31,556 nucleotides of DNA from the IMG/VR virus record IMGVR_UViG_2917849834_000001, positions 1 through 31,556 of that record; one strand, 5' to 3'. Both the position numbers and the translations under genes were made by a program. Shown piece by piece: positions 2,830 through 11,124 of this stretch. This DNA is from a virus (taxonomy: Duplodnaviria > Heunggongvirae > Uroviricota > Caudoviricetes). Below the pieces are notes generated by a model. That model worked only from the letters and a program-made list of their open reading frames with translations. It was not told the DNA's origin and searched no databases. Positions within the stretch are counted from its first letter, which is position 1, and every line of letters starts with the position of its first letter.

Positions 2830-3339
2830 ATGTTTGATTACAAGATTTCCAAACATCCGCATTTTGATGAAGCCTGTAGAGCTTTTGCATTACGTCACAA
2901 TATGGCGAAGCTGGCAGAACGTGCAGAAATGAATGTTCAGACACTGCGAAACAAACTCAACCCAGAACAACCGCATCAGCTTACTGCACCAGAAATTTGG
3001 CTGCTTACTGATCTGACAGAAGACTCAACACTGGTAGATGGTTTTCTGGCACAGATTCATTGTCTGCCATGTGTACCGATTAATGAGGTAGCAAAAGAGA
3101 AACTGCCACATTACGTCATGAGTGCAACCGCAGAGATCGGGCGTGTTGCTGCAGGTGCTGTTTCTGGCGATGTAAAAACCAGTGCAGGCCGTCGTGATGC
3201 GATCAGCAGCATTAACTCTGTTACACGACTGATGGCGCTGGCTGCTGTTTCATTGCAGGCCCGTTTACAGGCTAATCCTGCGATGGCGAGTGCAGTTGAT
3301 ACCGTGACTGGCCTCGGTGCTTCATTCGGTTTGCTGTGA
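2830..3339 (+). CDS. cII: CII-like lysogeny-establishment regulator (186 CII family)
   Basis: 169-aa ORF with RBS GGGGGCAGC upstream, at the position and of the size of 186 CII; HTH-like N-terminal region. Confidence 0.7.
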   Translation: MFDYKISKHPHFDEACRAFALRHNMAKLAERAEMNVQTLRNKLNPEQPHQLTAPEIWLLTDLTEDSTLVDGFLAQIHCLPCVPINEVAKEKLPHYVMSATAEIGRVAAGAVSGDVKTSAGRRDAISSINSVTRLMALAAVSLQARLQANPAMASAVDTVTGLGASFGLL

Positions 3340-4679: not shown

Positions 4680-5533
4680 GCACCATCCTGAAATGGGCGG
4701 GAAATAAAACCGCCATTATGTCCGAACTGAAAAAACATCTTCCTGCTGGCCCGCGACTGGTTGAACCTTTCGCGGGTTCCTGTGCTGTGATGATGGAGAC
4801 GGATTACCCCAGCTATCTTGTTGCGGATATTAATCCTGATTTAATCAACCTCTATAAAAAGGTTGCTGCTGATTGCGAGGCGTTTATATCTCGTGCCAGA
4901 GCTTTATTTGAGGAAGCAAACAGGGATGTGGCTTATTACAACATAAGGCAGGAGTTTAATTACTCCACTGAAATTACTGATTTCATGAAAGCGGTATATT
5001 TCCTGTATCTCAATCGTCATGGTTACCGTGGGTTATGTCGCTATAACAAGAGCGGGCATTTCAACATTCCGTACGGTAATTATAAAAATCCGTATTTCCC
5101 TGAAAAAGAAATTCGCGCATTTGCAGAGAAAGCCCAGCGGGCAACGTTTATCTGCGCCAGCTTTGATGAAACGCTGGCGATGTTGAAGGCGGGGGATGTG
5201 GTGTATTGCGATCCGCCTTATGACGGTACGTTTTCCGGCTATCACACTGACGGCTTCACTGAAGATGACCAGTATCACCTGGCATCCGTTCTTGAACATC
5301 GGTCATCAGAAGGACATCCGGTCATTGTTTCTAACAGTGACACATCCCTGATCCGTTCGCTGTATCGCAATTTTACTCACCACTACATCAAGGCAAAACG
5401 CAGCATCGGTGTAGCAGCTGGTGAGAGTAAATCTGCAACAGAAATCATCGCTGTTTCCGGGCCGCGCTGCTGGGTGGGATTTGATCCTTCGCGTGGCGTG
5501 GATAGTTCTGCCGTGTACGGAGTGCGTGCATGA
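4676..5533 (+). CDS. dam: DNA N6-adenine methyltransferase (Dam-like orphan MTase)
   Basis: ATG at 4676 overlaps the preceding stop; SAM-binding motif I (EPFAGSCAV) near the N-terminus and catalytic DPPY motif (YCDPPYDGT) later, the order expected for Dam-class enzymes. Confidence 0.85.
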
Positions 5534-7944
5534 GCCATGCTGATATGAACAACTGCAGCGGCTTTAACGAGGTCGCCGCAGCATTCTCATGGAACAGCCC
5601 GAAAAAGGCCATTAACCCTTATCTGGACCCGGCGGAAGTTGCGCCGGTTTCTGCGCTTTCAAACCTGATCACTCTGTACGCTACCGATAACGAGAAGGAA
5701 CAACTGCGCCGCGAGGCACTGAGTGATCAGGTCTGGGAGCGTTATTTCTTTAATGAATCCCGTGATCCTGTCCAACGCGAAATGGAGCAGGATAAGCTAA
5801 TTAGCCGGGCAAAGCTGGCGCATGAGCAGCAGCGTTTTAATCCGGACATGGTCATTTTGGCGGACGTTAACGCCCAGCCTTCCCATATCAGCAAGCCGCT
5901 GATGCAACGTATTGAATACTTCAGCAGCCTGGGCAGGCCAAAGGCTTATTCCCGCTATTTGCGTGAGACGATTAAGCCATGTCTGGAACGGCTGGAGCAT
6001 GTCCGCGACAGTCAGCTATCCACTTCTTTTCGCTTTATGGCGAGCCATGAAGGGCTGGACGGCCTGCTGATCCTGCCTGAAATGAGTCAGGATCAGGTGA
6101 AACGCCTGTCTACTCTTGTCGCTGCGCATATGAGCATGTGTCTTGATGCCGCTTGTGGTGATTTGTATGCCACCGATGACGTTAAGCCAGAAGAAATCCG
6201 CAAGACATGGGAAAAGGTGGCAGCAGAAACCCTGCGACTGGATGTTATCCCGCCTGCGTTTGAGCAACTCCGTCGGAAAAGAAACCGCCGTAAACCCGTG
6301 CCCTATGAACTCATTCCGGGTTCGCTGGCGCGTATGTTATGCGCCGACTGGTGGTATCGGAAATTATGGAAGATGCGTTGCGAATGGCGGGAAGAGCAGT
6401 TGCGTGCTGTCTGCCTGGTCAGCAAAAAAGCATCTCCCTATGTCAGCTATGAAGCCGTGATGCATAAACGTGAGCAGCGCCGTAAGTCGCTGGAGTTTTT
6501 TCGTTCTCATGAACTGGTGAACGAAGACGGCGACACGCTGGACATGGAGGATGTGGTAAACGCCAGCAGCAGCAACCCTGCGCATCGCCGCAATGAGATG
6601 ATGGCCTGTGTTAAAGGCCTGGAGCTTATCGCGGAAATGCGCGGTGACTGCGCCGTTTTCTACACCATCACCTGTCCGTCACGTTTCCATTCCACGCTAA
6701 ATAACGGCAGGCCCAACCCGACCTGGACAAATGCGACGGTAAGACAAAGCAGTGATTATCTGGTCGGCATGTTTGCTGCATTTCGTAAGGCAATGCATAA
6801 AACCGGGCTGCGCTGGTATGGCGTGCGGGTGGCTGAGCCGCACCATGACGGTACTGTGCACTGGCATCTCATGTGTTTCATGCGCAAAAAAGACCGCCGC
6901 GCCATTACTGCATTGTTGCGTAAGTTTGCCATCCGTGAAGACCGCGAGGAGCTGGGCAATAACACGGGGCCACGCTTTAAGTCTGAGCTGATAAACCCGC
7001 GCAAAGGAACGCCGACAAGCTACATCGCGAAATACATCAGTAAGAACATTGACGGACGTGGTCTGGCTGGCGAGATCAGCAAGGAAACGGGTAAATCCCT
7101 GCGTGATAACGCCGAATACGTTAATGCCTGGGCGTCTCTGCATCGTGTTCAGCAGTTCCGCTTCTTTGGTATTCCGGGGCGTCAGGTGTACCGTGAACTT
7201 CGCTTGCTGGCTGGTCAGGCGGCAAGGCAACAGGGTGACAAAAAAGCAGGTGCGCCAGTACTGGATAACCCGCGCCTTGATGCCATTCTGGCTGCTGCTG
7301 ATGCTGGCTGTTTTGCCACCTACATTATGAAGCAGGGCGGTGTACTGGTTCCCCGTAAATATCACCTCATCAGAACCGCTTATGAAATCAACGAAGAGCC
7401 GACCGCCTATGGCGATCACGGTATTCGTATTTATGGCATCTGGTCACCCATTGCAGAGGGCAAGATCTGCACTCATGCGGTGAAGTGGAAAATGGTTCGT
7501 AAGGCCGTTGACGTTCAGGAGGCGGCAGCCGACCAGGGCGCTTGCGCCCCTTGGACTCGTGGCAATAACTGTCCCCTTGCTGAAAATATGAACCAACAAG
7601 GGAAAGACAAATCAGCTGATGGGGATACCAGAACGGATATCACCCGCATGGATGACAAGGAGTTGCACGATTACCTGCACAGTATGAGCAAAAAAGAGCG
7701 CCGGGAACTGGCAGCAAGATTACGCCTGGTTAAACCGAAACGGCGTAAAGACTACAAACAGCGAATTACAGAGCGTCAGCGTCAGCAGCTCGTCTATGAA
7801 CTGAAGTCCAGAGGATTTGATGGCAGCGAGAAAGAGGTCGATTTACTCCTTCGCGGCGGCAGTATTCCGTCAGGAGCAGGCCTGCGTATCTTCTATCGGA
7901 ACCAGCGTATCCAGGAAGATGATAAATGGCGGAACCTGTATTAA
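5530..7944 (+). CDS. A: Replication initiation endonuclease (P2 gpA / 186 RepA family, rolling-circle)
   Basis: 804-aa ORF at the P2 gene A position; HUH-type motif region (VHWHLMCF), large size, start overlapping the dam stop. Confidence 0.85.
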
Positions 7945-8037
7945 TTACGCTGATTAACAATTAATGCTCTAAATAATAAGCAAAGGATAAATCCTATTGA
8001 TTTTAAAAAAACTTTTTACTTTAACGATATTATTATG

Positions 8038-8057
8038 TACTGTATGTAAAACCAGTG
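8038..8057 (+). promoter_or_regulatory. Candidate LexA (SOS) box TACTGTATGTAAAACCAGTG, with a second ATACAGTA half-site at about 8064-8071
   Basis: Fits CTG-N10-CAG with an AT-rich centre, in an AT-rich promoter-like region immediately upstream of the small ORF/DinI-like pair. Confidence 0.55.
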
Positions 8058-8102
8058 GTTAAGTATACAGTATTATCTACCCACAGTGAGATAGGAGGGA
8101 AG

Positions 8103-8291
8103 ATGCAGGATTATTTTTTAGAGTCGTTGAAACTCCAGCGAATTGATTTTTTTCTTAAGCTTGTAGTGGCCAGTGAATGTAGTGATCAGGAAAAAGAGCT
8201 TGCGCTGCTTTGGATTTCAGAACTGACGGATGAACTCATGGCAAAAATCAGAACCCACGAATATAACCGCTCAATGGATGTTGTTAACTGA
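8103..8291 (+). CDS. Small hypothetical protein (62 aa), first gene of putative SOS-controlled pair
   Basis: ATG at 8103 with strong RBS GGAGGGA (8094-8100); the ORF-track start at 8055 is a GTG lying inside the LexA-like box. Confidence 0.55.
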   Translation: MQDYFLESLKLQRIDFFLKLVVASECSDQEKELALLWISELTDELMAKIRTHEYNRSMDVVN

Positions 8292-8301
8292 GGGGTAATT
8301 T

Positions 8302-8535
8302 ATGCGCATTGAAATAATGATCGATAAAGAGCAAAAAATTAGCCAGTCTACCCTGGATGCCCTTGAATCCGAGCTTTACCGCAATCTGCGCCCCCTGTAT
8401 CCAAAAACGGTAATCCGCATCCGCAAAGGTAGCTCTAACGGTGTGGAACTGAGCGGACTGAAACTGGACGAAGAAAAAAAACAAGTGATGAAAATTATGC
8501 AGCAGGTATGGGAAGACGACAGCTGGCTGCATTAA
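8302..8535 (+). CDS. DinI-family protein (Tum-like candidate antirepressor module)
   Basis: 77 aa; MRIEIMIDK...YPKTVIRIRKGSSNGVELSGLKLDEEKKQVMKIMQQVWEDDSWL aligns with E. coli DinI (MRIEVTIAK...ETWESADDWF) from memory; RBS GAGGGG 8 nt upstream. Confidence 0.75.
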   Translation: MRIEIMIDKEQKISQSTLDALESELYRNLRPLYPKTVIRIRKGSSNGVELSGLKLDEEKKQVMKIMQQVWEDDSWLH

Positions 8536-8543
8536 GAAACGTT

Positions 8544-8572
8544 GCCCCCAGGAGGATTCATTCTGATGGGGG
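8544..8572 (+). terminator. Possible hairpin/weak terminator after the DinI-like gene
   Basis: GCCCCCA ... TGGGGGC 7-bp stem with about 15-nt loop followed by TGGTTTG; loop is long, so efficiency is uncertain. Confidence 0.3.
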
Positions 8573-8687
8573 CTGGTTTGGGCAACGAGTGAAACGAGGC
8601 GTAAGGTGGGCGGATATTTTGATAAGCAATAGTCCGTTTAGAGTCAGAAGCGAACGTTACTGACATCAAACTGGTGAGGAGTTCAGT

Positions 8688-9467
8688 ATGTATAATGCTT
8701 TTACTCTTCCCATATGGAGCCCTAACATGAATCGTTTGACTGAGATTGGTTTTATCAAGGTAGGATTCTGGCAGATTATAGACGGCAGCCTGAAATATCA
8801 TCTCGATGACAGATTCACAGATGTGAAGAACAACCTCTATGCATTTGTTTGTGATGGTGAGGTAAAGTACGTTGGTAAAACCACTCGTCTACTACGTAAC
8901 AGGATGTACCATTATTCACGTCCTGGCCCTTCCCAATCTACGAATATAAAAAATAACGCTAACATTATTGAGATGCTATCTAACAATGTTGCCGTAGATA
9001 TCTTGGTGCTTCCAGATTCAGGACTAATGCGCTATGGGCAATTTCACTTGAATCTTGCTGCTGGGCTTGAGGATTCAATCATTAGTCTTATCCGTCCTGA
9101 ATGGAATGGAATTCAGAGCCCAGTCTTGAAGAGTGAGGAATTAGTATCATCTGAAACTGAAATCATCACACATAGCAGTATCAAACAATTCACTTTCAAT
9201 ATGACAGATACGTACTGGCGTAGAGGATTCTTCAATGTGCCGGTAGTAAGTTCTCAACATTTTGGTAAAGACGGAGAGAACATTAAAATTGTTCTTCGTG
9301 ATGGTACGTCTTCCATCACTGCAATGATTAACCGAACTGCCAATCAGACTGGTTCACCCCGCATTATGGGGGGCGTTGAGCTCAGACAGTATTTTCAACT
9401 CAATTACATAATTGGTGATATCGTTCCTTTCGAAGTGATCACACAAAACATGATGAAGCTAAAATAA
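8688..9467 (+). CDS. GIY-YIG-like nuclease-domain protein with an uncharacterised C-terminal domain (possible B3/EcoRII-N-like DNA-binding fold); cargo gene
   Basis: 259-aa ORF with RBS GAGGAG; residues about 50-145 show GIY-YIG spacing (NLYAF ... KYVGKT ... RLLRNRMYHY ... E ... PEWN). Visibly AT-richer than flanking phage genes. Confidence 0.6.
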   Translation: MYNAFTLPIWSPNMNRLTEIGFIKVGFWQIIDGSLKYHLDDRFTDVKNNLYAFVCDGEVKYVGKTTRLLRNRMYHYSRPGPSQSTNIKNNANIIEMLSNNVAVDILVLPDSGLMRYGQFHLNLAAGLEDSIISLIRPEWNGIQSPVLKSEELVSSETEIITHSSIKQFTFNMTDTYWRRGFFNVPVVSSQHFGKDGENIKIVLRDGTSSITAMINRTANQTGSPRIMGGVELRQYFQLNYIIGDIVPFEVITQNMMKLK

Positions 9468-9740
9468 AAAGTGTTTCTTCCTTCCTACGGTCGTATCAGC
9501 CTGAAAAGTTCTGTGGGGCGATCTGAGCACTTCCAATCAAATACGCAGATATTATCAAAGCACATCGGGTAGCAGCAGACCGTGAACTTCCGCCCCTGAC
9601 TCACAGCATTCCGTTAGCTTTGATAGCTCGAATGTGTCGGTTTTCAAGTGGTCAATCAGATACGTACCTTCACCCCACTCGTTAGTGCATGTCTATGCCG
9701 CATGAATCCGCATGATCGTTTGAGGATCGTTTTTGCTGAG

Positions 9741-9768
9741 GCCCGCCAGAACTGGCGGGCTTTTGCTT
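9741..9768 (+). terminator. Rho-independent terminator
   Basis: GCCCGCCAG-AA-CTGGCGGGC followed by TTTTGCTT. Confidence 0.65.
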
Positions 9769-9809
9769 ATGTCATGCAGGTGCATGAAAATCACTACATA
9801 AAGCGGGCA

Positions 9810-9828
9810 GGCGTGGCGGGGATACGAG
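9810..9828. other. Candidate cos site (19-nt cohesive-end region) GGCGTGGCGGGGATACGAG
   Basis: Resembles the P2/186 cohesive end as I recall it (GGCGAGGCGGGGAAAGCAC, then GCGCGC...ACGG); located between the cargo locus and the 3' end of the portal gene, where cos lies in P2. Confidence 0.4.
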
Positions 9829-10083
9829 CGCGCGCAACGGGGTAAAATGGCCAAAATCCGGCACAGCCTCTGGCCCGCTGGCGGCCTCATTTGATGGGGG
9901 GGGGAAGATGTCAGGGCAAAAAGAAACGCCCCCGCAGAATGCTGCTGAGGCGCTTAGGTTGGTGTTATCGTTTCCTGGGGGGCGGTAAATAATTTTTGGT
10001 AGTGTTACCTTTCGAGCATGGCTGGTATCCGGGACAGCCTTTGCGCTGTCGTTCGCAGCCAGGGCAACTGCATTTATCAGTCA

Positions 10084-11124
10084 TCAGTCTTTTACAGAAA
10101 TATCTAATGTGTAGGGTTCGAAGCGGACCACTTCTTCACCCAGCCAGTCATTCAGCTCCTGCAGTCGCTTTTGCAGTGGCATCAGTTCATTGCGGACGAA
10201 GACACGGCTCGCTTTTTCCACATCACCAAAGCCGCCAGTGTTGTTGGGAATGATGCCCATCATTTGCGGCGGTACGCGGTGAGCCGCCATCATGTCATCG
10301 CGGCTGACGTTCTTGATGTTCAGAAATTCATCCTTCGCCGCGACTTCCGACAACGGGATAATCTGAATGCCATCTTTTTTGCCGTTAGGCGAGTACATAA
10401 ACAGGTTGCGGAAGTTGCCCGGTCCTTTAGCACTTTTCATTGCCTTGCGGATGTTGTTCACATCCTCCTGGTTCTGTGCGGCGTCGGTCATATACATGAT
10501 GAAGCCTGCGTGGCTGCCGTTAATGTAATACTTGCGGCGGAACAGCGTGGCGGATTCGTTGAGCAGAGCTGACGGAATGGCAGAAAGGTAACCCGGCAGA
10601 CCATAAATCTCCTGGTTGATATCCGGCTCCATCAGGTGGAAGACGTTACCTTTTGTGAACTGATACGGCTGTGTAGTCAGGCTGTATTGCACAAACCAGT
10701 ATGTTTCAAGGTCAAGCCCGCGTCGGGTGTATTTTGCCAGTGCAGGCTCCAGCAAAATAACTTCACCAAAGCGGTTCGTGCGTTTCTCCAGGTAGGCGTT
10801 ACCAAAAACCAGATAGTCCTGCACAAAACGGGTAAATGCCTGCTGGCTGAGAAGGCGATGTGGAATATAGGTACTGCTGATAATGTCACGCTTAACACTG
10901 ATCGGGGAGCTGTGGTGCACGGCGGCGCGGAAGGTGCGCGCCAGTCCGTCAAAGCTGACGGGCGGCTCATACCAGCGATCCATCTGTACGCATTCCACAT
11001 AGTCCAGCAGTTCGCGGCGGTCCAGTACAGGAATGGGATCACCAAAGCTGAAAGCCTCCGCAACGGATTTTTTAGTTTCTTCTGCAGTTACGGTTTCGCC
11101 TGGCGCGATATGTTCTTTCATCAA
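10084..11124 (-). CDS. Q: Portal protein (P2 gpQ)
   Basis: 346-aa ORF, same size and position as P2 Q, transcribed leftward toward cos; start overlaps the stop of the upstream terminase gene. Confidence 0.88.
   Translation of the reverse strand: MMKEHIAPGETVTAEETKKSVAEAFSFGDPIPVLDRRELLDYVECVQMDRWYEPPVSFDGLARTFRAAVHHSSPISVKRDIISSTYIPHRLLSQQAFTRFVQDYLVFGNAYLEKRTNRFGEVILLEPALAKYTRRGLDLETYWFVQYSLTTQPYQFTKGNVFHLMEPDINQEIYGLPGYLSAIPSALLNESATLFRRKYYINGSHAGFIMYMTDAAQNQEDVNNIRKAMKSAKGPGNFRNLFMYSPNGKKDGIQIIPLSEVAAKDEFLNIKNVSRDDMMAAHRVPPQMMGIIPNNTGGFGDVEKASRVFVRNELMPLQKRLQELNDWLGEEVVRFEPYTLDISVKD

Follow-up and report, generated by a model that had tools for sequence, protein, structure and literature searches.

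A probable SOS operon of the split tumA-tumB type under a double LexA operator in a Fels-2-like P2/186-family prophage

The region following gene A in the window, i.e. the whole stretch of 31,556 nucleotides analysed here, is very probably an SOS operon, carried by a Fels-2-like P2/186-family prophage and split, as is common, into a tumA-like gene and a following tumB-like gene. The window itself is a Fels-2-like (Felsduovirus-type) P2/186-family prophage, and its two small ORFs, ORF1 and ORF2, would constitute the equivalent of the LexA-repressed tum locus of coliphage 186, as the sequence-only reading had proposed. This equivalence is supported by the same genomic position, the same promoter layout, the homologies of both ORFs, the presence of a 186-type CI repressor and the deletion of the orthologue in the DuoHS prophage. 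That 186-like phages are induced through LexA, Tum and CI has been textbook knowledge since the 1990s, and the DNA-damage switch of Fels-2-like prophages is an ordinary and already known one, whose two-gene layout is common.

Regarding the genome context, int, cI, apl, cII and A were called as full-length ORFs in the window, and long ORFs, mostly without identification here, extend on both strands up to its end. Gene A (5530-7944) lies just upstream of the spacer preceding the tumA-like gene, and the same order of gene A then tumA is found in 186, PSP3, Fels-2 and DuoHS. The presumed target of TumA is a 186-type CI repressor encoded on the minus strand (1800-2432), where the ATG at 2432 is the same start as in Fels-2 CI; the protein is 80% identical to Fels-2 CI and 31% identical to 186 CI by BLASTP (E 3e-36). 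Its Pfam matches, Phage_CI_repr and Phage_CI_C, are both above cut-off and include no S24 peptidase family. On account of a weak match to a "UmuD-like" PHROG (E 7e-4), a self-cleaving repressor was considered and rejected, as Pfam places the region concerned in Phage_CI_C (E 2.4e-35) and not in S24.

The spacer after gene A (7945-8102) has 28.5% G+C against 52% for the window, and it is in this AT-rich region that a LexA-box-like sequence and a second half-site had been noticed at the outset. The former was borne out, box 1 (TACTGTATGTAAAACCAGTG; 8038-8057, no strand assigned; core CTG-N10-CAG at 8040-8055) scoring 22.1 bits with a 20-bp weight matrix made from 28 E. coli SOS boxes, i.e. the top score in the 31.5-kb window, where the maximum over 200 shuffles was 20.0. 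The half-site is also present but is only the right half of a full second box, box 2 (CAGTGGTTAAGTATACAGTA; 8053-8072, likewise unstranded; core GTG-N10-CAG at 8055-8070), which is the second-ranked matrix site in the window with 14.1 bits; its left half is the non-canonical GTG and its score is near the bottom of the known-box range (minimum 13.0). The 16-bp cores of the two boxes share a single base, G8055, in a 15-bp register. The weight matrix was needed because box 1 departs from the idealised palindrome at 5 positions, so that a search with the perfect-consensus 20-mer allowing at most 3 mismatches found no match. Fels-2, SopEphi, the E. coli HS prophage DuoHS and Yersinia phage MLG42 all keep both boxes in the same register, and the boxes are conserved in relatives although their flanks diverge. 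Among 120 matches to the double-operator pattern in IMG/VR, tumA lies directly downstream in 88, of which 80 also have tumB. Taken at the level of sequence, the boxes at 8038-8072 form a colicin-type double overlapping LexA operator conserved in Fels-2-type phages, at which, by analogy with the colicin operators, two LexA dimers would bind. A literature search found no paper on this doubling of the LexA box in tum promoters of the Fels-2 type, which is absence of evidence only. The third-best LexA-like site of the window (8669-8688, 9.1 bits), just before the downstream cargo ORF, was considered as a second SOS operator and rejected as being below the known-box range; this site exists only through a 12-nt deletion relative to the homologous regions in Raoultella and Enterobacteriaceae B14.

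On the plus strand, the SOS promoter, equivalent to p95 of 186, would comprise a putative -35 hexamer TTTACT (8015-8020) and a putative -10 hexamer TACTGT (8038-8043), the latter falling within LexA box 1 with the same overlap as annotated for the -10 of 186 p95. The two hexamers are 17 nt apart, p95 being annotated with the same geometry (TTCACA...TACTGT), and the -35 position is kept as TTTACA in Fels-2 and DuoHS. These hexamers are weak and were not called by a simple sigma-70 consensus scan.

Downstream of a GGAGGG ribosome-binding site (8094-8099, plus strand), kept as AGGAGG in relatives, the tumA-like gene ORF1 runs on the plus strand from the ATG at 8103 to the TGA at 8291 and encodes a predicted antirepressor of 62 aa. 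It is 90% identical to STM2728 of Fels-2 and 87% identical to ECHS_RS04495 of E. coli HS, matches phrog_698 (E 4e-36) and has homologues in 385 protein clusters at E <= 0.001. BLASTP against 186 Tum gave a low pairwise similarity, 25% identity across 36 aa (E 2e-5), and ORF1 and the N-terminal part of 186 Tum both match phrog_698, phrog_8554 and phrog_1993, the last of which is also matched by PSP3 TumA. Such similarities support ORF1 as a predicted remote homologue of the N-terminal part of 186 Tum. As ORF1 and PSP3 TumA showed no similarity by BLASTP, they can be linked only through the profiles, with 186 Tum in between. Searches of Pfam, NCBIfam and PADLOC gave no family for ORF1. An AlphaFold2 model of TumA is a two-helix hairpin (pLDDT 90), for which sequence and fold searches of the PDB returned only generic helical hairpins. 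In the comparison of ORF1 with its Fels-2 counterpart, differences at codon positions 1, 2 and 3 number 3, 3 and 19, respectively, and an excess of third-position substitutions is seen for both ORF1 and ORF2 against four relatives; this marks both as real genes subject to purifying selection. Every phage record listed names the 62-aa gene "hypothetical protein", "unknown" or "levan regulatory domain protein", and its orthologue is a "hypothetical protein" in the RefSeq record of E. coli HS. The practical value of the present analysis is one of annotation, and this 62-aa gene should be named a TumA-type antirepressor.

The succession of a 62-aa ORF and a 77-aa ORF of the DinI family, as first read from the letters, was confirmed by the coordinates and by the Pfam search. 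The tumB-like gene ORF2 (8302-8535, plus strand, ATG at 8302) follows ORF1 after a tight gap of 10 nt, with a GAGGGG Shine-Dalgarno sequence overlapping the ORF1 stop codon. Its product covers positions 1-63 of the 63 of Pfam DinI (PF06183; E 3.9e-23, 82 bits for a cut-off of 24.2) and can be aligned along its whole length with residues 1-77 of E. coli DinI (1GHH). It is 95% identical to the Fels-2 protein, 83% identical to PSP3 TumB and about 40-41% identical to the C-terminal DinI-like part of 186 Tum (E 1e-23), whereas it scores 43.9 bits against a cut-off of 111 for the NCBIfam equivalog of chromosomal DinI, PRK10597. By these similarities, ORF2 is a phage TumB-type paralogue and not an orthologue of the host dinI.

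That two separate ORFs would be an unusual organisation, as initially supposed, did not hold, since the split form is described in Fels-2 and PSP3 and is commoner than the fused one in the phage collection. A 2011 paper reports tum as split by a stop codon in Fels-2 and PSP3 (PMC3121763, citing Bunny, Liu & Roth 2002) and attributes the antirepressor activity to the upstream PSP3 gene. The GenBank record of PSP3 labels tumA "UV induction of prophage" and tumB dinI-like. In the phage collection, the Fels-2-type ORF1 was found in 66 records, compared with 28 for full-length 186 Tum (at least 90% identity). Of 5426 complete E. coli genomes, 1285 (about a quarter) carry the locus, some in up to 4 copies. 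As a discovery, the present locus carries little weight, the split form having been noted in 2002 and the requirement for a close orthologue shown genetically in 2025.

In an undamaged lysogen, the double operator (8038-8072) would be occupied by two LexA dimers and the promoter would be silent, since both the -10 region and the probable start of transcription lie under the operator. Upon DNA damage, activation of RecA would lead to LexA self-cleavage and the promoter would fire. TumA, as a helical hairpin of 62 aa, would then bind the 186-type CI, which has no self-cleavage domain among its Pfam matches, and lift its hold on the lytic promoter, giving way to lytic growth. TumB, made from the same transcript, would act on RecA filaments and tune the strength or the duration of the SOS signal, as suggested by its family membership and by analogy with DinI and with truncated 186 Tum products. 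We infer direct binding of TumA to CI in the present phage; 186 Tum binds CI, relieves repression and is needed for SOS induction in the account given by PMC3121763 (citing Shearwin 1998). In E. coli HS, ECHS_RS04495 was deleted as "tum" with the DinI gene left intact, and both the tum mutant and a lexA(Ind-) strain showed neither lysis nor virions after mitomycin C (PMC12055606, 2025).

A first alternative is that the features are intact but that the prophage or the module is functionally dead, i.e. a cryptic remnant in which the operon no longer takes part in induction. Defective members are frequent among P2-family prophages, and completeness or excisability cannot be read from the window alone. 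However, int, cI, apl, cII and A are full-length with long ORFs reaching the window end, neither tumA nor tumB is disrupted and both show purifying selection when compared with active phages, and the same module is found in Fels-2, RE-2010 and DuoHS, each of them either inducible or isolated as a phage, all of which makes a dead remnant improbable. It is very unlikely, for its part, that the module is SOS-regulated with ORF1 as a mere accessory beside a DinI-like modulator, induction proceeding via CI degradation or another antirepressor. The lack of any Pfam, NCBIfam or PADLOC family for ORF1, its lack of BLASTP similarity to PSP3 TumA and the other names it bears in some sources, e.g. "levan regulatory protein", would fit such an accessory role, but the 87%-identical orthologue is needed for induction in E. 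coli HS, the Pfam matches of CI include no autocleavage domain, profiles link ORF1 to the N-terminal part of 186 Tum, and the window holds no other well-scoring LexA-like site.

A chance match to LexA boxes in AT-rich DNA next to a spurious ORF1 is effectively refuted and retains hardly any probability. While the bare CTGT-N9-CAG core is found 6 times in the window for 4.2 expected, which is not significant, and the promoter scan was empty here, box 1 outscores all 200 shuffles with a second box beside it in exact register, the boxes are conserved where the flanks have diverged, and ORF1 shows both the third-position bias and the 385 homologous clusters.

TumA hardly varies (81-97% identity) among prophages in which CI shows an overall identity of only 43-80%, and the CI of these same prophages share a nearly identical N-terminal segment, RDSFPAEWVIQCALETG. 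It is tentatively suggested, as an idea more doubtful than probable, that Fels-2-type phages have rewired the 186 design by combining a double LexA operator with a TumA acting on the shared N-terminal segment of CI, a combination seemingly unexamined before. If true, the double operator, where 186 and PSP3 have a single box, would set a higher and later damage threshold for induction, and, if TumA targets RDSFPAEWVIQCALETG, the TumA of one prophage could induce co-resident relatives in trans. Both this operator and the co-variation of TumA with CI as opposed to the conservation of TumB offer modest, testable refinements regarding induction thresholds and cross-talk in this prophage family.

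On the plus strand, a G+C-rich hairpin with a poor T tail, GCCCCCA...TGGGGGC (8544-8573), stands 3' of tumB; with an RNA fold z-score of only -1.3 and no call by the terminator consensus scan, it might possibly act as a partial terminator, its position matching the partial terminator t95a of 186. It is followed by a cargo gene on the same strand (8688-9467; true start probably the ATG at 8727), located between gene A and the portal gene, i.e. in the P2 defence hotspot. This gene encodes an uncharacterised nuclease that combines a GIY-YIG domain with a B3-like DNA-binding domain, a domain reading that relies on an AlphaFold2 model and PDB matches; the protein matches the endonuclease family phrog_1111, and its homologues, mostly of 245-246 aa, are named GIY-YIG nuclease family protein. 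The cargo gene may be co-transcribed with the SOS operon by read-through. The first strong candidate stop for plus-strand transcripts past the SOS promoter would be an intrinsic-terminator-like hairpin read from the sequence, GCCCGCC-AGAACT-GGCGGGC followed by TTTTGCTT (9741-9768, plus strand), which the consensus terminator scan did not call. An Rfam search of positions 7800-10200 gave no credible RNA family.

Compared with known systems, the closest counterparts are STM2728/STM2726.1 of Fels-2 and ECHS_RS04495/ECHS_RS04500 of DuoHS, where gene A, an AT-rich spacer and a double LexA operator are likewise followed by a 62-aa ORF, about 10 nt and a 77-aa DinI-like ORF, with 87-90% identity for TumA and 95% for TumB. 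The differences from both consist of a few substitutions in the operator spacers, 4 extra nucleotides between box 2 and the ribosome-binding site, and another cargo gene downstream. The CI of DuoHS is only 43% identical overall to the present one, mostly because its C-terminal domain differs.

Salmonella phage PSP3 also has a split two-gene SOS module after gene A, with 83% identity for TumB, but its TumA belongs to another subfamily (phrog_1993 and not phrog_698) with about 20% identity and no BLASTP match, and it has a single LexA box and a longer CI of 286 aa. Against the Fels-2-type proteins as a whole, PSP3 TumB is 78-88% identical and PSP3 TumA only 12-20%. In terms of sequence, the TumA type varies with the CI type and TumB is conserved across types; the contrast would fit a conserved host target for TumB and a phage-specific target for TumA.

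Coliphage 186 shares the position after gene A, the LexA-repressed promoter with its TACTGT -10 overlapping the LexA site, and another operon gene further downstream (orf97); like the present pair, 186 Tum combines an N-terminal antirepressor part and a C-terminal DinI-like part, with a 186-type CI as target. It differs in having one LexA box instead of two and a fused Tum of 146 aa, from which annotated internal starts still give a separate DinI-like product, the TumA part being 23% and the TumB part 41% identical to the present proteins.

Outside this phage family, the operators of colicin Y (pCol-Let) have cores that also overlap by one base and are 88-90% identical to the present one across 42 nt. 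In colicin double operators, two LexA dimers are bound and untimely expression is prevented (PMC2994835). The colicin operator drives an operon of toxin and lysis genes whereas the present one would drive a phage antirepressor, and their similarity may reflect the constraint of two consensus sites rather than common descent. As for the Gifsy prophages, their operons differ in that dinI comes first, in the antirepressor and repressor families and in belonging to lambdoid phages, yet GfoA/GftA rely on the same scheme as here, namely a LexA-repressed operon associating a DinI homologue with a small antirepressor directed against a non-cleavable repressor (PMC3121763).

Between gene A, the P2/186-type replication endonuclease gene ending at 7944, and ORF1 lies a 158-nt spacer with 28.5% G+C, as against 52% for the window, in which a sequence-only reading had placed a LexA-box-like sequence and a second half-site. 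While the bare CTGT-N9-CAG core occurs in the window at a non-significant frequency (6 matches vs. 4.2 expected), a 20-bp LexA weight matrix built from 28 E. coli SOS boxes ranked box 1 (TACTGTATGTAAAACCAGTG, 8038-8057) as the top site of the window with 22.1 bits, which exceeds both the median of known boxes and the best score in 200 shuffles (20.0 bits). The second-highest score across the entire window, 14.1 bits, belongs to the adjoining box 2 (CAGTGGTTAAGTATACAGTA, 8053-8072), so that what had been taken for a half-site is the 3' part, or right half, of another box. The 16-bp cores of the two boxes (CTG8040...CAG8055 and GTG8055...CAG8070) have one base in common and together form a double operator. 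A putative -35 element, TTTACT (8015-8020), stands 17 nt 5' of a putative -10 element, TACTGT (8038-8043), which overlaps the LexA site as the annotated -10, also TACTGT, does in p95, the SOS promoter of coliphage 186. Since a consensus promoter scanner gave no call for this pair, its assignment as the SOS promoter is inferred by analogy.

Downstream of the operator, ORF1 runs from ATG 8103 to TGA 8291 (62 aa, with a GGAGG ribosome-binding site 5') and ORF2, starting 10 nt further on, from ATG 8302 to 8535 (77 aa). The GAGGGG Shine-Dalgarno sequence of ORF2 overlaps the stop codon of ORF1; tight as this packing is, translational coupling is no more than plausible. In both ORFs, comparison with four relatives revealed a strong third-position substitution bias. 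The assignment of ORF2 to the DinI family was borne out by a Pfam match to the entire domain (E 3.9e-23, 82 bits for a cut-off of 24.2) and by an end-to-end alignment with E. coli DinI (PDB 1GHH). The suspected kinship with the Tum antirepressor of 186 was also supported for both parts. ORF1 aligns by BLASTP with residues 7-42 of Tum (25% identity, E 2e-5) and matches the same PHROG profiles as the N-terminal 70 residues of Tum, namely phrog_698, phrog_8554 and phrog_1993, while ORF2 is 41% identical to the C-terminal part of Tum, 83% to PSP3 TumB and 95% to the Fels-2 DinI-family protein. Closer relatives of ORF1, hereafter TumA, are found in Fels-2 (STM2728, 90% identity), the E. coli HS prophage DuoHS (ECHS_RS04495, 87%) and SopEphi (orf10, 81%). 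PSP3 TumA matches phrog_1993, and direct BLASTP of ORF1 against it detected no similarity; judged by these comparisons, the TumA family is real but divergent. The AlphaFold2 model of TumA is a two-helix hairpin (helices 2-23 and 28-61, pLDDT 90), for which PDB searches returned generic hairpins only.

The need for such a protein follows from the type of repressor. The early genes comprise those of an integrase (772-1797) and CI (1800-2432), both on the minus strand, of Apl (2516-2797) and of CII (2830-3339), besides gene A. A mechanical ORF call gave CI as 1800-2438 on the minus strand, with a TTG start and 212 aa; the ATG at 2432 is the likelier start, yielding 210 aa and the MSLIK... beginning of Fels-2 CI. 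The protein carries Phage_CI_repr and Phage_CI_C, both domains of 186 CI, the S24 peptidase family being absent from its Pfam matches, and is 31% identical to 186 CI (BLASTP) and 80% to Fels-2 CI. As is established for 186, a repressor like its CI cannot be inactivated by RecA-stimulated self-cleavage, and an antirepressor is therefore needed. In the mechanism that we propose, LexA would keep the promoter shut, probably with two dimers bound at the double operator, until DNA damage leads to the removal of LexA; TumA would then inactivate CI, presumably by binding to it, and TumB would modulate RecA.

This division of labour fits one comparison: between PSP3 and Fels-2-type phages, TumB is conserved (78-88% identity) and TumA divergent (only 12-20%), as would be expected if TumB had a conserved host target and TumA a phage-specific one. 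Among Fels-2-type phages, TumA is 81-97% identical and CI 43-80% overall, with a nearly invariant N-terminal segment in the latter, RDSFPAEWVIQCALETG, whose equivalent in 186 CI is RGAISYDFAAHCALETG. This pattern hints that TumA may recognise the N-terminal domain of CI and that its action could extend, in trans, to relatives resident in the same host; a common origin of the early region accounts for it equally well. Comparison of PSP3 (L009:3135-3554) with the window (8103-8535), where TumB is 83% and TumA about 20% identical, the latter with another PHROG, gives a module that seems mosaic, as if recombination had swapped the antirepressor half and kept the DinI half. Besides, a TumA-like ORF follows gene A in Escherichia phage ESSI2_ev015 (L007:1501-1713) and in Cronobacter phage ESSI-2 (L008:1501-1668), being wholly unannotated in the latter. 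Neither record has an annotated DinI-like gene there, and the annotated genes that come next lie on the other strand, which suggests that TumA is able to work without TumB.

The double operator recurs in the same register in Fels-2, SopEphi, Yersinia phage MLG42 and the E. coli HS prophage, whereas 186, PSP3 and ESSI-2 have one box at that position. Scanning IMG/VR with the loose pattern CTGT-N9-CAGTGG-N8-ACAG returned at least 120 matches; among the 120 listed, 88 are followed by a TumA homologue no more than 700 nt away, 80 of these 88 have TumB as well, and most of the remaining 32, having G+C-rich spacers, look like chance matches. A 51-nt operator query (8030-8080) also hit 1009 records of plasmids; over 42 nt, identity reached 88-90% in the best of them. 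In the two examined, pCol-Let (L010:970-1011) and a pCol-Let-like plasmid (L011:1501-1542), the match lies immediately 5' of the colicin Y gene and aligns in the same two-box register as the phage operator. This likeness could be convergence imposed by two LexA consensus sites, and common descent is not claimed; exchange of a regulatory cassette would be the alternative.

Beyond tumB, a G+C-rich hairpin whose T tail is poor (8544-8573) occupies the place of the partial terminator t95a of 186, and a cargo ORF (8688-9467) precedes the portal gene. Most homologues of its product having 245-246 aa, translation probably starts at ATG 8727. The protein belongs to no Pfam or PADLOC family and had no match in the phage collection; its homologues, named "GIY-YIG nuclease family protein", form 819 protein clusters and occur elsewhere as stand-alone genes in unrelated contexts across several phyla. 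When its AlphaFold2 model (pLDDT 81) was compared with the PDB, the N-terminal domain proved similar to GIY-YIG nucleases (T4 EndoII, Hpy188I, the UvrC N-terminal domain) and the C-terminal domain to a B3-like DNA-binding barrel (plant B3 factors, the BfiI recognition domain, the LlaJI.R1 N-terminal domain). In P2-like prophages, the interval from gene A to the portal gene is a hotspot for anti-phage genes (PMC9519451), which makes this cargo a candidate for an anti-phage or restriction-like nuclease encoded by a single gene. The third-best site of the LexA matrix, AACTGGTGAGGAGTTCAGTA (8669-8688, 9.1 bits), overlaps both the ribosome-binding site of the cargo ORF and its first ATG. It owes its existence to the loss of 12 nt in comparison with homologous upstream regions of other genomes, has a score below those of known boxes, and is probably due to chance. 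The first strong terminator-like hairpin on the plus strand, GCCCGCC-AGAACT-GGCGGGC followed by TTTTGCTT (9741-9768), which a simple terminator scan did not call, is found some 270 nt 3' of the cargo ORF. A read-through transcript from the SOS promoter would end there, and the SOS transcript may thus read into the nuclease gene, in parallel with the SOS operon of 186, which includes orf97.

Much of this pathway has precedents. The PSP3 GenBank record describes tumA as "similar to 5' end 186 tum; UV induction of prophage" and tumB as "similar to dinI and 3' end of 186 tum", and to Lemire et al. (2011; PMC3121763) Tum looks like a fusion of an antirepressor with DinI. According to a 2002 paper, known here through its citation in that article, Fels-2 makes lexA null mutations lethal in Salmonella LT2. 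In the Phollow study (PMC12055606), the primers join the ATG of the 62-aa ORF to its TGA and retain the downstream ATGCGCATTG... of the DinI-like gene; the deleted tum, ECHS_RS04495, is the 62-aa "hypothetical protein" encoded between the replication endonuclease and DinI-like genes. After mitomycin C, neither this deletion nor a lexA(Ind-) strain gave lysis or virions (PMC12055606), and the pathway put forward in the sequence-only reading has therefore already been demonstrated by genetics for an orthologue of 87% identity that has the same operator. In public databases, the ORF1 protein is named 'hypothetical protein', 'unknown' or 'Levan regulatory protein' (UniRef), and 'levan regulatory domain protein' in two Klebsiella phage records; judged against the deletion of tum in DuoHS and the tumA entry of PSP3, the gene looks wrongly annotated, or not annotated, in such records.

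What is not supported is the expectation that two separate ORFs would be unusual. By tblastn, ORF1 is found in 66 records of Klebsiella, Escherichia, Salmonella, Cronobacter and Yersinia phages, as against 28 phage records that match 186 Tum over its full length with at least 90% identity, every one of the matches listed being a single uninterrupted, hence fused, piece, and the A-tumA-tumB stretch is present in 1285 of 5426 complete E. coli genomes, in up to four copies per genome. The two-gene form is therefore the usual one and the 186 fusion the minority. ORF1 homologues make up 385 protein clusters (E <= 0.001), one of which, "MULTISPECIES ... [Escherichia]", is identical to ORF1 over 62 aa and stands on 137 contigs. 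The module itself is widespread and was known before; only three details are new, namely a double operator of the colicin type that is conserved in Fels-2-type tum promoters, the co-variation of TumA and CI vs. the conservation of TumB, and the uncharacterised nuclease cargo. Even 186 Tum, though fused, has annotated internal starts that give a separate DinI-like product.
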